Of a stretch of 64,000 bases of DNA, positions 4,371-36,285 are shown piece by piece (the first letter of the stretch is position 1; every line of letters starts with the position of its first letter). The stretch is taken from positions 32,001 to 96,000 of IMG/VR virus record IMGVR_UViG_3300033074_001484, one strand, 5' to 3'. A program made the translations under genes and the position numbers. The notes under the pieces are model-generated. The model saw only the letters and a list, made by a program, of their open reading frames with translations. It had not been told where the DNA came from and made no database searches. Source of the DNA: a virus (taxonomy: Duplodnaviria; Caudoviricetes).

Positions 4371-4400
4371 CCTTGGTGTTATAGCGTAAACACTATGTTA
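4371..4400 (+). other. attI-like array head site, copy 1
   Basis: CCTTGGTGTTATAGCGTAAACACTATGTTA; part of a 70-nt repeat 68/70 identical to 15418-15487, with identity ending just after the GTT core. Confidence 0.7.
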
Positions 4401-4410
4401 GCGGTCAGTG

Positions 4411-4629
4411 CTACTTAGCGTGTAGCTTCATGGATTCGTCCAATTGCTTAACAGTCATGTGTCCACAGCCTTGATGGTAGCTATCAATCCACTGGTCGTT
4501 GTCAATATCAGAAGGGTGAACACCATATCTTATTACAATTTCGTTTTCCGCTAATTTTAGCAAGTCAAGATAGTTTCTATGTGCATCCGTAAGTGTATCA
4601 AGTATTTTTTGAAATTGTTTATCAGTCAT
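4411..4629 (-). CDS. Hypothetical cassette protein
   Basis: Fills unit 4397-4661; stop codon abuts the terminal IR. Confidence 0.65.
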   Translation of the reverse strand: MTDKQFQKILDTLTDAHRNYLDLLKLAENEIVIRYGVHPSDIDNDQWIDSYHQGCGHMTVKQLDESMKLHAK

Positions 4630-4755
4630 TTTATTTCAATTTACCGCACCGAACCGCTAACAAGGCATTTACGCTACCCGTGCGGACGATACGCTATTTA
4701 ACATTGGTTTTTCAATTACGGGGCAGCGTAAATGCCCCGTCCGTTGTGTGTAATA

Positions 4756-5184
4756 CTACGTTCGTCCATCAAACACCACCACCATACTATCGTGCATACC
4801 AGCATTGCCCGTAACAAATTCGCCCTTTGTATTTACACCGCAAAACTTTATTCTCTTTTCAATGAAGCGGATTTCTTTTTGGTTCGGCAATATATGTTTG
4901 TGGAATAATTGAGTGCTTGTGCTTACAGGTAAAAGCATCACACATAATTTACCTTTCTTGCTTTCCTCTATTGCCTTAATCACAAATGCATCTTTAAGTT
5001 TTCTACTGTAAGGTGGGTTAATAAAATTTCGCTCTTTCCATTCAATTTCAAGTCCATCCCATTTTTCAATATCGTGCTGATACGGGCAAGGATCAAAGTT
5101 AAAATCAAACTCTTTATTCAATTCATCATAAAAGTACAGTGGTGTCGCCCAGTCATTTTTATGTGGTATGTTTCTATTCTTCAT
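4756..5184 (-). CDS. Phage N6-adenine DNA methyltransferase (Dam-like), cassette-borne
   Basis: DWATP...FDPCP...FINPPYS motifs. Confidence 0.85.
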   Translation of the reverse strand: MKNRNIPHKNDWATPLYFYDELNKEFDFNFDPCPYQHDIEKWDGLEIEWKERNFINPPYSRKLKDAFVIKAIEESKKGKLCVMLLPVSTSTQLFHKHILPNQKEIRFIEKRIKFCGVNTKGEFVTGNAGMHDSMVVVFDGRT

Positions 5185-5310
5185 AATTTCTGTTTATTTG
5201 CCCGTACTACACACAACAATGTGTATAAGTAATGGCACGTTAAAGTTTGTGGCATAATTCAAAGGTTAGGTGTATGTGCCACTACTCATACACTCGGACG
5301 TTAGCAACAA

Positions 5311-32368: not shown

Positions 32369-32801
32369 ATTTTAAGTTAATAATCCGTGCCAGTGTACAA
32401 CAATGGCTATACGGTATTAAAACGACCGTTTAGCCCCATCGTTACCGGCAACGCTTCGACAACACATCATAAATGGACTTCAGTTTGATAGCAGCAAGCC
32501 GGTGCTGTTCATTTACCGCAGCCGAACTATCTAACACTTTTCGCCTATCTTTCTTAGGCGTGCTTTTGGAAAACTGCCAATCTTCAGCAAAGCTGCTCGG
32601 TGCGTTTCTAATAAGGCTTGCTGCTACCTTCAGTAACTCCGATAGGGCTATATCAACAGCACTGCCGGTAACAGGTGCATTGCTGCTATGTGGGCCGACG
32701 GAAGTTGTTTCAACTGTATTCATAAATTTTGCTTTTAGTTCTTAATTTGGGGCTGACGTGCAGGATTGCCCACACAGTCAGCAATGCTTCAACGTTAGCG
32801 G

Positions 32802-33215
32802 CTATACTACCTGTCCCTTAAAATCTTCACCCCAATGATTATCCAAATCAGCATAGTCCAGTTTGACAAGCCGATTTCCATAATAACCATAGTTTGACAT
32901 TGTATCATCACCGCCAAAATGTTTTTTAAACTCTGAAATATCTGTTATCGTTTCCCATTGTTCTCTTGTAATTGGCCTTGCTTTTTTCATAATCAAAATC
33001 CATCCACCCATCGAACACCAAACCACAGGACATAATAAATGAGATGTTCCTTTTTCAAACTTGCCACTATTAAACTTCCACGTTTGGTTTTCACTGATAT
33101 TACCAATTATGCCACGTAGAAAATGAGACCACTGACAAGTAAAGTTTGGTATCTTGACAACCACATTTTTAAACTCAATTACTATTCGTGTAACGCCTTT
33201 ACGATTTATTTTCAA
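32802..33215 (-). CDS. Hypothetical, kinase-fold-like cassette protein
   Basis: GVTR...VVKIP...D..SNYG....LVKLDY resembles a minimal protein-kinase-like fold. Confidence 0.4.
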   Translation of the reverse strand: MKINRKGVTRIVIEFKNVVVKIPNFTCQWSHFLRGIIGNISENQTWKFNSGKFEKGTSHLLCPVVWCSMGGWILIMKKARPITREQWETITDISEFKKHFGGDDTMSNYGYYGNRLVKLDYADLDNHWGEDFKGQVV

Positions 33216-34939
33216 AGCTCACTACTGATTACCCGTACAGCCGCTAACATGAGTATTTATGTAAGTCGGGCTAACGGTAGTTAATTAATCGTTTTATCTT
33301 TATTCGGCTTTTGTTCAAGCATTGGGCTGACGAACATAAACTCCCGCCCTGCATAAATACCTGTTCGTTAGCACCAATACTACGAATGTGCTTCAAAAAC
33401 TTGATTATCTCTTAATCGTATTCGCTCTCTTATAGTTTCGGCTAATCGTTCTACTTCATCAGAATAAGAACAAACAACTGTTCCATCATCCTTTTTTAAA
33501 ACTATCGGCATTGCATTTGCGTACAATTCAAATAATACTTTGAATAGTTCTTTTCTGTGGCTATCATTTAAAATAGCCTCTCTTTGTTTTTGGTAATACT
33601 TTTGGTCTTTCATTCTATTTATATTTTGTTGTTAATAATCCGTACTGGTGCTAACAGCACATACACGCTATTTTGCCACGCTCAATCCAACGCTCACAGC
33701 GTGTATCTACAAAACGTTATGTATTAGTGGCGGAGGTAGCTTCTCTGTTGTTCGGAATTAGTGTTGGGTTTACAGACCAAATGCAAAACCGAGCTTTAAT
33801 TTATCGCCACCTAATACATAACATTGTAAGCGTCAGTTGGGGCTATGTGCAGGTAATTACAACTTTTCCCCTATTCGGTTGTACAGGCAGATGGAATTGC
33901 CACCCCCTCGAATACCCAACCGAACGCTTATACAAGTGCCGTTATAGGTAAGGCTATTCTACCACCTTAGAAATTTTTTCAAGTTTGGCATCTAATAATT
34001 GTTTGAAATAGTATTGATGCGTACAGTTTGGATTGGAACATTTTTTTATGTTCACTTCATTTGTTTCACCATCAAATTTATGGGTGGTTAATATTTCACC
34101 TTCATTGCATTTACCACACTTGAAAATGTGAGTGTTGTTTACTTTTGCCATTCTTTTAAGTTTTGTGAGAAGCCCTACCTATAACAGCACATAGGTAATA
34201 ACGTTATAGCCAATGCTGAATAACCAACAGGGCTAAAAACATTCCTATAATAATTAACACACCTTTCATCCACCAAAAGGGATTCTCGGTTGTCTTTCTT
34301 TCTCGTTCTAAGTCAATCCACTTGTAATCTGTTTGTTTTTTCATAATTCAAAATTGGTTAAAAGCACTGGCTATAACACGGGATAAAACAACTGTTTAGC
34401 CCTGTCCATTATAGGGCATTTACAATCCCACTTAGCTCATCAATCCAATCTTCGACCATTTTGAAAGCATAATCTCTTTCAGTCCAGTCATTTTTTTCAT
34501 CCCAATTTTTCATCCTTCCCTGTAACTCCTTTAGGAAGTCAAGGTCTCTTTTTGATTGCTCCCACTTTTCCATCTCAAAGTCGGATTTTTGTTTGAAGAC
34601 TACCTGTTTCAAGTCTTCAATTTCAGATTTTAGTTTATCGTTACTCATTTCGTTAAATTGACAATTATTAGTTCCAAAGCCGTCAATTCGTTAAGCACGA
34701 CAAAGAATATAAACCATAAAAACTACTCACTTTTAGCTTTCATATCGTGTTTATACCTTATATAAGAGTTCACAAAAAAGAATAGGCTTGTAAGTAGCCA
34801 AATCCAAGTCGTAAAATCTCTATCGTTTTCAATGTCGTATGCAAATGCAATCCATAGTAACACGCCTATTCCAAATAAAATGTATCTCACGATTCCGTAA
34901 TTTTTACAGGTCCATATTCAAGTCCGTTATGTACAAGCA

Positions 34940-35398
34940 CTACTTATCGTATCCTAAACGAACTGCTGTGTTTCTCATAATGTCGCAAAGCTGTTCAGAT
35001 AATTCAAACCGCCCTTTATTTATCTCAATGGATTTCATTATGTCTCCATCGGCGGTCCTTTCGGCGGCAGCTTTCCAATCGAAGAACATTTCCATCAAAT
35101 CAAATAAATCAAACCCATTTACACCATTTTCGTAATGCTCAGGGTGATGGCTGTTATTTTTGTAATGATGATCAAGGGCTACTTTCAACCCCTTCAAAAA
35201 CTCTTTGTACTCATCACTTCCATAAGTGCAATTTTTAAGTTTAGGCGTGTACTCATCAAATAATTCCTTTTCAGGGCTTTCCAGTTTTGAATTATCATGA
35301 ACATTGGCACGTCTAATCAATTCACTTGCTGCCTCTACCAATAATTGGTTTACTCTTTTGATGTGTAGTAGAGTATCTGCTGTGCTATCGTATTTCAT
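34940..35398 (-). CDS. HD-like protein (DUF5662-like), cassette-borne
   Basis: HI..V...HDNSK...HHY.NNSHHPEHY...EMFFDW. Confidence 0.7.
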   Translation of the reverse strand: MKYDSTADTLLHIKRVNQLLVEAASELIRRANVHDNSKLESPEKELFDEYTPKLKNCTYGSDEYKEFLKGLKVALDHHYKNNSHHPEHYENGVNGFDLFDLMEMFFDWKAAAERTADGDIMKSIEINKGRFELSEQLCDIMRNTAVRLGYDK

Positions 35399-36285
35399 AT
35401 TTATAAATTTTCGTTGTTAAACCCGTGTCAGTACATAACACAGGCTATAAAATCATTTCGTTCCTCAACGCTTCATATACACAAAACGTTAGGCTTCATT
35501 TGCCCACGCACACAAACCCAACATTTTTCTTTTGACATGTGCCTAAATTTAATGGTTGACAATATACAAAACCATAACATGTGATTAAATGCTTACTATA
35601 TAAAATCTTCAATTTCCGCCTCCCAGTCTATACAATCACCTTCCCGGATATTGTCCATCAACCATTGTAACGCCTCTGGATATTCTGATACGCCGCCAAG
35701 GTGAATGTCATTACCATTTTCATTTGCCTCGTGTATTTGATCATAAACGTCGTTTGGCATTTCGACATCACATAATGTTACTCGGTAGGATATTCTTACC
35801 GTTAAATCTTTTACTGTTGCCATGCTTTATTCAGTTTTATTGTTGGTAATTTATACGACATAAAGGTTCCACTTTTCTTCAAAGAATTTCCAAAATCTCC
35901 AACAAGGTTCAAAATATCTATCCGATGAAAATTCTTTAACAATTTCCCCAAGGTTTTTCCGGCTATCACATTTTTTGCACGTAATCGATCCATAGCATTT
36001 TGTATTTGGAAAGCTACAACATAGCTGATTCAAATTCATCAACTGTGTCAAATCCAATATTAAACCCGATAAATTTTTTACCATCATGCACCAATTCATC
36101 GACACAGCCCTGCGTGTCAACATAGAAAATTTGCTGTCCGGAAAATCCTTCAAGGTTTAAAATTTCAGCAACAACTCGTTCGGCTGAATTTGTTATCGAC
36201 ATACCAACATTGGTATCTTCCAACAGTATAAATGCCGGATTTACAAGTTTTACAGTGTAGTTTTGCATAGCACAATTGAATTTAG

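Follow-up and report, generated by a model that had tools for sequence, protein, structure and literature searches.

Integrons, defined by the integrase IntI, are the textbook gene-capture device of Proteobacteria. Those of the Treponema denticola type, in which the integrase is inverted, use true IntI as well. In classical integrons (IntI, attI and attC; class 1 and Vibrio chromosomal integrons), a recombinase gene adjoins an insertion site and co-oriented cassettes of one gene each, the far end of every cassette is an imperfect palindrome with AAC...GTT cores, conserved in structure and variable in sequence, and new cassettes enter beside the recombinase. All these features recur in the system described here, the recombinase-proximal entry being seen in relatives of the phage (attI; Freya_10 versus Freya_1).

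Surveys have found Bacteroidota to be nearly integron-free (PMC9024848) and phages to carry few stray attC sites (PMC9892861). Published examples of attC clusters without an integrase (CALINs) in phages include one in Polaribacter phage P12002L, of which one site recombines with attI1 under IntI1; 2-3 sites were reported per phage, using tools trained on classical attC, and no cognate enzyme was named (Qi et al., 2023, PMC9892861). The P12002L cluster is the closest published case to the DNA analysed here (64,000 nucleotides of a viral genome, hereafter the window). In both, phage-borne hairpin sites lie between methyltransferase genes with no integrase nearby. It differs in that the window holds four arrays with about 30 cassettes and that such arrays are, in relatives, linked to a specific family of Xer-like recombinases. 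If the sites are taken as attC-like, the 64 kb contain four CALINs (at least two attC, integrase not nearby).

Hairpin sites and cassette arrays in the window

A strict scan, in which AAC had to be followed by a spacer of 0-6 nt, a 12-bp stem (11 or more pairs) and GTT, returned 11 sites, in which every left spacer was 1-3 nt and every right spacer 5-6 nt, confirming the non-classical spacing that had been proposed; the same scan found zero sites in the 36-64 kb part of the window. A covariance model (R1) was built from 14 hairpin seeds and run on the window by cmsearch with filters off, producing 23 plus-strand matches at E<0.01 that span 4651-35498, and one minus-strand match only (49231-49377, E 0.002). 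The count is 23 firm sites and about six weak ones (weaker R1 matches at 7225, 21691, 33812, 34175, 34367 and 34851), against the 29 hairpins claimed in the original prediction. The seeds scored 45-88 bits forward versus 10-23 bits when read on the reverse strand, and the single orientation of the sites, which all lie on the plus strand from 4.6 to 35.5 kb, is therefore real.

The sites have the layout AAC, 1-3 nt, stem, loop, stem, 5-6 nt, GTT, and possess the features of attC: imperfect palindromes, AAC/GTT cores, conserved structure, variable sequence and one orientation. Read by eye as duplex DNA, a site would have a spacer of about 6 bp on the AAC side and about 9 bp on the GTT side; sites of the Xer/dif type consist of two arms of roughly 11 bp around a central region of 6-8 bp. 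Classical integrons have an R stem of 7 bp, whereas here it is 10-11 bp, with an internal loop of 1-3 x 5-6 nt. Of the stem cells in 95 independent sites, 94% were paired, compared to 22-47% in slid controls, and 11 of the 12 stem pairs showed changes on both sides.

The ends of each cassette body were scored over 8 nt beyond AAC/GTT, with at least 6/8 complementary as the criterion. This level was reached by 16/22 adjacent pairs in the window and by 3.8% of the non-adjacent ones (65.5% versus 5% in relatives, 177 cassettes), whereas the two cores within one hairpin were complementary at a mean of 3.0/8, i.e. at chance level, so that the proposed contrast between matching body ends and non-matching hairpin cores was upheld. 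The three end pairs quoted as examples (4743/5204, 15484/17561 and 18052/18626) were present, each with one mismatch over 14-15 nt; however, terminal repeats of 14-16 nt represent the upper range, the typical matched end being 10-11 bp, and the pairs 20684/20818 and 31870/32391 matched poorly. With a crossover between G and TT of the core, the first bases of a cassette come from its own site and therefore pair with its own far end, an integron feature that is present here.

The features of the window are listed in Table 1. Four arrays had been predicted and four were found, with bounds redefined to 4395-~7550, 12020-12357, 15484-22110 and 31187-35498.

Table 1. Cassette arrays, sites, cargo genes and neighbouring elements of the window.
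Feature	Position	Strand	Evidence	Description
Head of array 1	4331-4394	+		attI-like entry, ..CCTTGGTGTTATAGCGTAAACACTAT before GTTA; takes in truncated start of NUMOD4/HNH gene
Array 1	4395-7553	+	cmsearch, strict scan, Pfam, sequence	~7 cassettes
Array 1 sites	4651-4753, 5207-5310, 5512-5611, 6103-6165, 6818-6955	+		
Array 1 degenerate site; half site	7100-7348; 7511-7553	+		
Dam methyltransferase	4756-5184	-	Pfam	array 1 cargo
Array 2	11990-12357	+	repeat-family match, cmsearch	head (CCTTGGTGTTATAGCGGTTATACAAT before GTTA) and one cassette (12020-12352)
Array 2 site	12259-12357	+	cmsearch, 55 bits, E 7e-9	ends ATT, not GTT
IS200/IS605-family insertion	12982-14700		Pfam OrfB_IS605, Cas12f1-like_TNB, Y1_Tnp	between arrays 2 and 3
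tnpB	12987-14177	-		in IS200/IS605-family insertion
tnpA	14269-14682	+		in IS200/IS605-family insertion
NUMOD4 fragment	15229-15453	-	Pfam NUMOD4	74 aa, adjoins array 3 head
Head of array 3	15418-15483	+		attI-like sequence as in head 1
Array 3	15484-22110	+	cmsearch, Pfam, sequence	~12 cassettes
Array 3 sites	17565-17763, 17932-18062, 18630-18733, 18837-19042, 19536-19609, 20584-20684, 20818-20911, 21116-21250, 21345-21478, 21691-21786 (weak), 21970-22110	+		
N6_N4 methyltransferase and MjaI-like restriction enzyme	15577-17560	+	Pfam	array 3 cargo
MT-A70	18065-18601	-	Pfam	array 3 cargo
N6_N4 methyltransferase	19627-20394	-	Pfam	array 3 cargo
Fossil cassette	22535-23411	-		Thg1-like gene; GTT-side end GTTACCTGCC kept on +, hairpin lost
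Head of array 4 (probable)	31140-31186	+	by eye, weak	..TATTGTGTGTATGCAGTA before GTTACC
Array 4	31187-35498	+	cmsearch, Pfam, sequence	~11 cassettes
Array 4 sites	31478-31539, 31732-31870, 32391-32451, 32662-32804, 33238-33377, 33645-33726, 33812-33951, 34175-34213, 34367-34418, 34851-34936, 35429-35498	+		
3'-5' exonuclease	31874-32368	-	Pfam	array 4 cargo
DUF5662	34940-35398	-	Pfam	array 4 cargo

Three of the arrays have a common conserved head that differs from the attI of integrase-linked relatives; the head of array 1 is 97% identical to 15418-15487, the identity ending exactly at GTTA. The window heads resemble the attI consensus of the integrase-linked arrays only loosely, and the probable head of array 4, as read by eye, may resemble that consensus (GTGTGTATATATAATA before GTTA). 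Decayed junctions, with ATT or GTA for GTT, were found at 12350, 31860, 34408 and 21240. The paralogous bodies 5601-6113 and 19032-19546 bear different right-hand hairpins, which strict co-travel of body and hairpin would not predict. The IS200/IS605-family insertion is no part of the cassette system.

The cargo consists for the most part of DNA methyltransferases and small unknown genes. As had been noted, it is inverted relative to classical cassettes, in which the ORF lies upstream of the site on the same strand: the ORF was on the opposite strand in 19/21 window cassettes and on the bottom strand in 161/165 cassettes of integrase-linked phage arrays, and the start of some cargo ORFs lies within the loop of the cassette's own hairpin. 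The classical same-strand order, ORF before site, was found in 22/22 cases across six chromosomal arrays of this family in bacteria. Analysis of P12002L with R1 gave four sites at 30001-32702 of NC_028924, in a region of methyltransferase genes; the published work gives two sites for this phage. Since these sites are found by R1 and their cargo lies on the opposite strand, they are of the same kind as the window arrays.

Natural variants and the recombinase gene beside related arrays

Homologous cassettes in different contexts have GTT, body, AAC and the right-hand hairpin in common, and homology ends exactly at GTT on both sides. Cassette 6155-6955 of the window, for instance, is the first cassette beside the integrase in phage record G001. 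Between near-identical phages, the differences involve whole cassettes, and the breakpoints coincide precisely with GTT. The loci L071 and L099 have flanks that are 97-100% identical and cassette blocks that are reordered, with breakpoints on the core to the base. The cultured Polaribacter phage Freya_10 matches Freya_1 except for an additional 4,921 bp between attI and the GTTGTAAAC cassette; the inserted block carries a hairpin at its end, and the insertion point adjoins the integrase gene. Elsewhere, the Thg1 gene (93% nucleotide identity to the window copy) forms a complete, hairpin-flanked cassette, GTTACCTGCC...GGCAGGTAAC, that was found in otherwise unrelated phage contigs. Thus, cassette order varies (L071/L099) and breakpoints fall on GTT (L071/L099 and Freya_1/Freya_10), and together with the G001 cassette these variants bear out the integron-type cassettes put forward in the original prediction.

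The window itself contains no recombinase detectable by tblastn with the integrase of relatives (best E 0.19 over the 64 kb), which agrees with the predicted absence of an integrase. Among five whole phage records, a PF00589 gene was present only in the two with strong R1 sites (E ~1e-12), namely G001 (at least 12 strong sites) and G005 (2), where it lay directly beside a site; record G002 had one weaker site (E 1.9e-5) and no PF00589 gene. Using the recombinase protein of relatives as query, we retrieved 79 IMG/VR phage loci, in which R1 found 321 matches at E<0.01 and arrays of up to about 12 sites. Among the matches listed, 300/300 were upstream of the recombinase and on the opposite strand, and an independent site scan gave 403 upstream opposite-strand sites compared to 54-82 in each of the three other classes. 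The arrays are immediately upstream of a Xer-like tyrosine recombinase of 266-270 aa and divergent from it; this classical divergent position fits the proposal that a tyrosine recombinase acts on the window arrays in trans. The sequence ..TATATATAATA before GTTA is conserved as attI in about 20 distinct loci, 30-40 nt from the recombinase start codon. Homologous recombinases also occur in Bacteroidota chromosomes (Tamlana, Seonamhaeicola, Gaetbulibacter, Maribacter and Polaribacter), where arrays of this kind accompany them.

The catalytic residues R-K-H-R-H-Y are all present in the Xer-like recombinase. On TIGR02249 it scored 126-214 bits (cut-off 265), with model positions ~180-240 skipped, and its alignment to VchIntIA was split in two, with some 48 residues missing, and that to XerA was continuous. 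The IntI-specific additional domain, which the enzyme of classical integrons has, is absent from it according to both comparisons, and among profiles and solved structures it is closest to XerA, XerC and XerD. A XerA/XerC/XerD-like enzyme is likewise used by Xer/dif and by the pdif modules of Acinetobacter plasmids. Arms of dif read ..ATAA / TTAT.., and the arms here, of about 11 bp, are rich in the same sequences; dif sites, however, are 28-bp duplexes in a chromosome-dimer context, unlike the long covarying hairpins arrayed here beside the enzyme's own gene. As in the Treponema denticola type, recombinase and cargo genes of the phage arrays point the same way, but relative to the sites it is the cargo, rather than the recombinase, that is flipped. 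In the Flavobacteriaceae chromosomal arrays L183, L171 and L227, the recombinase is upstream and co-oriented with classical ORF-then-site cassettes.

Alternative explanations

The sites could be ordinary attC derived from bacterial integrons and recombined by a host IntI, the neighbouring Xer-like gene being an unrelated lysogeny integrase. Indeed, AAC/GTT cores and the palindromic design are common to these sites and attC, one P12002L site is a substrate of IntI1 in E. coli (PMC9892861), and the authors of the Freya phages interpreted the integrase there as indicating a temperate lifestyle (PMC8776804). We nevertheless regard this origin as unlikely, given the invariable placement of the listed sites relative to the Xer-like gene in the 79 loci, the entry of cassettes exactly at the conserved site next to its start codon, a 2 x 5 nt spacer geometry and 10-11 bp R stems unlike those of classical attC, and the near absence of IntI from Bacteroidota according to IntegronFinder 2.0 (PMC9024848).

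The hairpins might instead act in regulation or at the RNA level, as terminators, processing sites or modules of promoter and stem-loop like those of T4-type phages, with genes shuffled by homologous or illegitimate recombination between hairpins with no dedicated enzyme. The sites are intergenic and would be transcribed in the 5' leaders of cargo genes, and some loops or leaders contain a TTAAGTTTnGTG motif; the T4-type promoter/stem-loop cassettes provide a known precedent. However, breakpoints fall on a 3-4 nt core to the base, and stem sequences differ between sites and therefore offer little homology for recombination. Neither the tight linkage of a recombinase gene to the sites, nor the lack of a T run after the stems, nor the complementarity of each cassette's own ends, which has no regulatory rationale, fits such elements, and we hold this account to be very improbable.

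Mobilisation of the hairpins, in the manner of REP/REPIN, by the HUH (Y1) transposase of the IS200/IS605 element (tnpA, Y1_Tnp, with tnpB at 12987-14682, between arrays 2 and 3) can be dismissed almost entirely, for although Y1 transposases act on DNA hairpins, the palindrome of the element (14203-14269) is its own and unrelated, the stems here covary whereas copies of REP-type elements are near-identical, and arrays in the 79 other loci accompany a tyrosine recombinase, not tnpA.

Proposed mechanism and implications

We therefore consider it highly likely that these four cassette arrays belong to an integron-like system by which Bacteroidota-type phages capture genes, with a linked Xer-like recombinase. 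On the plus strand, a cassette would begin with the TT(A)... of one GTT core, continue with the body and ...AAC, and include the right hairpin as far as the G of the next GTT. In the excised circle, the two 10-11 bp cassette ends would pair, which would complete a site with an R stem, an internal loop of 2 x 5 nt, an L stem (12-20 bp) and a variable loop. A folded form may be suggested by the covariation of the stems and the pairing of the ends; the chemistry would then involve folding of a single (bottom) strand, strand cutting and resolution by replication. The Xer-like tyrosine recombinase is predicted to exchange strands between G and TT, either hairpin with hairpin or hairpin with the attI-like sequence just upstream of its gene, which would result in cassette insertion, excision and reordering. 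Nearly all phage cargo lies on the opposite strand and is read along with phage transcription, towards the recombinase gene. For the integrase-less window arrays with their conserved heads, the enzyme might be supplied from elsewhere in the genome, by a co-infecting phage or by the host, and the arrays might be active in this phage at present; alternatively, as no recombinase lies within the 64-kb window, they may be relics.

The system is a variant of the integron with its own enzyme family, its own site geometry and, in phages, a reversed cargo orientation. Unlike classical integrons, its hosts are Bacteroidota, a phylum reported as almost integron-free, and their phages; this parallel system is abundant in metagenomic giant phages and marine Flavobacteriaceae, and cassette variation is visible even among cultured isolates of one Polaribacter phage. 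Somewhat in favour of the broader view, we suggest that a separate lineage of short Xer-like recombinases, without the domain considered essential for integron integrases, runs true integron-type capture across Bacteroidota and their phages and, in the latter, serves to exchange methyltransferases and small unknown genes, as anti-defence genes, among unrelated genomes; the IntI insertion would then be dispensable for hairpin-site recombination, or the integron design would have arisen more than once. If so, current integron finders would be missing a whole phylum's worth of cassettes. The system would provide a test of whether the IntI insertion is really needed to recombine folded DNA, a route to study the origin of integrons from Xer recombinases and a mechanism by which large phages could rapidly turn over small accessory and anti-defence genes.

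Sites and body ends in the window

A strict scan returned sites of the form AAC, 1-3 nt, stem of at least 12 bp, loop, stem, 5-6 nt and GTT. There were 11 of them, all on the + strand, with none within 36-64 kb. A covariance model of the sites was built from 14 seeds and used to search the window without filters, which gave 23 + strand matches at E<0.01, spanning 4651-35498, plus about 6 weaker ones. The alternation of cassette bodies and hairpins described in the original prediction was confirmed, and its interpretation as an integron-like system was supported. The sole − strand match (49231-49377, 29 bits, E 0.002) falls within a 344-aa ORF, a long way from any array, and is either a chance match or a lone inverted site. 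Scored on the reverse strand, the seeds reached 10-23 bits, versus 45-88 bits on the forward strand, so the common orientation of the sites is real.

Body-end pairing was measured over the 8 nt beyond the AAC/GTT cores, taking at least 6 complementary positions as the criterion. Adjacent body ends paired in 16 of 22 cases and non-adjacent ones in 3.8%, while the two cores of the same hairpin were complementary at chance level. The matched body end usually comprised 10-11 bp. All three body-end pairs quoted in the original prediction were found, each with one mismatch in its complementarity.

A short class of sites (about 62 nt; 6103-6165, 31478-31539 and 32391-32451 in the window) has a conserved loop, ATTAAAACGA, and also occurs in the unrelated phage contigs L071 and L099; this sharing suggests that the loop itself is recognised or functional. 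A promoter-like motif was matched just 6 times in the hairpin loops of the window, which is not enough to support a claim.

Arrays, cargo and their phage

Cassette arrays and neighbouring features of the window
Feature	Position	Strand	Description
Array 1	4395-~7550	+	Cassette array
Array 2	12020-12357	+	One cassette only
IS200/IS605-family element	12982-14700	tnpB −, tnpA +	Between arrays 2 and 3
Array 3	15484-22110	+	Cassette array
tRNA cluster	28658-46026	−	23 tRNA genes, small ORFs in between
Array 4	31187-35498	+	Cassette array

The heads of arrays 1 and 3, i.e. the attI-like entry sequences before the first cassette, are 70 nt long and 97% identical to each other, with the identity stopping exactly at GTTA. 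The head of array 2 has its last 30 nt in common with both, and array 4 is preceded by ..GTGTGTATGCAGTA/GTTACC. The window heads resemble the attI consensus of integrase-linked arrays only loosely, and several cores of the window are decayed; the arrays here may be active or may be relics. The window-head 16-mer CCTTGGTGTTATAGCG had 16 matches in IMG/VR, all by chance in unrelated contexts. The heads also take in the beginning of a NUMOD4/HNH homing-endonuclease gene (4331-4369 and 15229-15453), of which 18 codons are left at head 1 and a 74-aa fragment at head 3; in the Freya phages of Polaribacter, the gene immediately after the integrase encodes an HNH endonuclease.

Cargo identified by Pfam comprised a Dam methyltransferase, an MT-A70 protein, two N6_N4 methylases (one in a restriction-modification pair), a 3'-5' exonuclease and DUF5662, the rest being many small ORFs with no family assigned. 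Searching for exact matches to the protein of the exonuclease cassette returned no record. As predicted, the cargo is inverted: the longest ORF was on the − strand in 19 of 21 window cassettes, and several ORFs start within the loop of the hairpin to their right (e.g., 18734-18979 and 31530-31799). The complete restriction-modification pair (N6_N4 methylase and MjaI-like enzyme) is on the + strand. It is a type II pair occupying one cassette (15484-17575), made up of a methylase with a C-terminal SNase-like part and the MjaI-like endonuclease; few other cassettes are oriented in the classical way, and phages do not usually carry a restriction enzyme as cargo.

Two paralogous cassettes (5601-6113 and 19032-19546) have 97% identical ends, different middles and different right-hand hairpins. 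In both, an inner perfect inverted repeat of 17-18 nt (5648/6045 and 19079/19477) flanks an ORF on the + strand, and the two ORFs have their N-terminus in common. The MT-A70 cassette (18050-18631) was found at 99.5% identity in a contig from another sample (L148, Logan SRR14556252), which begins 2 nt ahead of the GTT core of this cassette and at whose far end the MT-A70 body is fused directly to another cassette start (..AAAAAC/GTTAGGTGC..), without a hairpin.

G+C content was 33-42% across the 64-kb window, and the − strand holds almost all genes; other genes encode a SegE-type GIY-YIG endonuclease, thymidylate synthase, a Thg1-like enzyme, a radical-SAM protein and an IS200/IS605 element. 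Close relatives were absent from 50,697 deposited GenBank phage genomes (0 megablast matches to 18 kb of the window) and from IMG/VR queried with DUF7873, a 332-aa family-less protein and ThyA. In these searches, sharing between the window phage and other phages was confined to individual cassettes. The window reads as an accessory region of a large, uncultivated phage. Its leftward extension by Logan contigs gained about 0.5 kb. Logan contigs of this phage came from the samples SRR32380201, SRR32380200, SRR23814900 and SRR23814904. Three such contigs (L017, L018 and L147) break off within a hairpin site or at the head repeat (near window positions 33681, 21987 and 4387), which fits either repeats or population variants breaking short-read assembly there. 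A 262-bp stretch at the tnpB end of the IS200/IS605 element has a 100% identical copy at 45013-45274, within the tRNA region. An 810-aa family-2 glycosyltransferase gene (53466-55898) may be interrupted by an intein, judging from a weak intein-splicing match over residues 232-612 (24 bits, below the cut-off).

Recombinase linkage and breakpoints in related phages

As the original prediction had stated for integrases, no recombinase was found in the 64 kb when these were searched for homologues of the relatives' Xer-like enzyme. The 216-aa ORF next to head 1 (3684-4334) was rejected as a candidate for an overlooked recombinase, having no Pfam family and no integrase similarity. A query with the Thg1-like protein led to 29 IMG/VR loci, in which the model matched 25 sites, 24 of them in the same relative orientation. 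Among five whole phage records searched, strong sites (E ~1e-12) were confined to G001, a 287,855-bp record with terminal repeats in which at least 12 sites form three clusters, and G005, which has 2; G002 had one weaker site. Only G001 and G005 carry a PF00589 gene, in each case directly beside, and divergent from, a site. In G005 (locus L050 of a 640-kb record) the Xer-like recombinase gene is broken by a TAA stop and two sites are left in the whole record, as if this copy of the system were decaying.

The G001 recombinase, P0002, has 270 aa and the catalytic residues. It scored best with the XerA_Arch profile (177 bits, below the cut-off), and the integron-integrase profile TIGR02249 came second (152 bits in two stretches; cut-off 265). 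Among solved structures, it aligned continuously to archaeal XerA and in two pieces to VchIntIA, lacking about 48 residues of the region specific to IntI. An IMG/VR search with P0002 found 92 relatives; 80 were retained, and 79 of their loci were scanned. The covariance-model search of related phages proposed in the original prediction found 321 sites at E<0.01 in these 79 recombinase loci, in arrays of up to about 12 sites; among the matches listed (300 of the 321), each was located upstream of the recombinase, on the strand opposite to it. A separate scan counted 403 upstream opposite-strand sites versus 54-82 in each of the three other position/strand classes. Across 95 of these sites, 94% of stem cells paired (22-47% in slid controls), and 11 of 12 stem pairs had changed on both sides.

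Breakpoints between related sequences were then located. The window cassette at 6155-6955 (body plus right hairpin) is homologous to the first G001 cassette, which is joined to the DNA immediately ahead of the integrase start codon; the homology begins at GTT and stops after ...CAACC/GTTA. Contigs L071 and L099 have 97-100% identical flanks and reordered cassette blocks, with all breakpoints on GTT cores, and the cassette adjoining the integrase in one of them sits behind another hairpin in the other. About 20 distinct loci have in common the entry site ..T(G/T)T(T/G)TATATATAATA/GTTA, 30-40 nt from the start codon, and diverge immediately after it. Of two cultured Polaribacter phages, Freya_10 differs from Freya_1 by an insertion of 4,921 bp with about 10 small genes, lying precisely between ..TTATAGGGGT/GTT on one side and the cassette GTTGTAAACAAT on the other; the insertion has a hairpin site at its end, and its flanks are 100% and 99.8% identical to Freya_1. 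In the Freya phage paper the integrase is interpreted solely as an indication of a temperate lifestyle (PMC8776804). The Thg1 gene has 93% nucleotide identity between the window and contigs with no other shared sequence; in those contigs hairpins flank it as the complete cassette GTTACCTGCC...GGCAGGTAAC, and the window copy keeps one end only. These comparisons define the cassette unit on the window + strand as GTT, body, AAC, hairpin and G.

With the recombinase on the left, this is the layout of a classical integron, but the cargo of the phage arrays is inverted (161 of 165 cassettes). Taking the − strand as the top strand would make the cargo classical. This reading was rejected, since each body travels with the hairpin to its right on the + strand, and the ORFs starting in loops would straddle two cassettes.

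Bacterial counterparts and relation to integrons

Homologues of the enzyme (38-53% identity) were found almost only in Bacteroidota genomes, and the search of their loci with the covariance model, also proposed at the outset, gave 72 matches. A recombinase followed by a co-oriented array was found in Tamlana, Seonamhaeicola, Gaetbulibacter, Arenibacter, Polaribacter and one Bacteroidales genome; in these arrays 22 of 22 ORFs were on the classical strand, with body-end pairing as in the phages. A Maribacter array has the divergent layout. The bacterial enzymes scored best with the XerA model, and all skip the IntI insertion region.

The architecture of the arrays, their orientation, the covariation of the stems, the pairing of body ends, the linkage to the enzyme and the natural insertions and reorderings at GTT are established by these comparisons. 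The proposed mechanism is modelled on that of integrons, reportedly set out by MacDonald in 2006 and Bouvier in 2005. By analogy, the site would act as a folded single strand, the same model would designate the strand that is cleaved, and resolution would occur by replication. Sites of the window type differ from classical attC in their internal loop (about 2 x 5 nt) and R stem (10-11 bp), so mechanistic details may differ from those of the classical integron.

Bacteroidetes were described as nearly integron-free with IntegronFinder 2.0 (PMC9024848). Qi et al. (2023) reported 17 phage attC clusters without integrase and with methyltransferase cargo, and recombination of one site of the Polaribacter phage P12002L under IntI1, in a Bouvier-type assay (PMC9892861). 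In P12002L our model detected four sites in the methyltransferase region, which may or may not include the two sites of that paper, with cargo on the opposite strand; these sites are therefore of the same kind as those of the window. MW202573, another phage attC cluster of PMC9892861, had no site of the window type by the model. A Xer-like enzyme with such arrays was not described in the full-text literature covered, which excludes most subscription journals, on integrons in jumbo phages or Flavobacteria and on attC-like phage sites. The window system is a new integron variant, large, multi-array and integrase-less, in a giant phage, and its arrays belong to a widespread system of Bacteroidota and phages with an insertion-less Xer-like recombinase.
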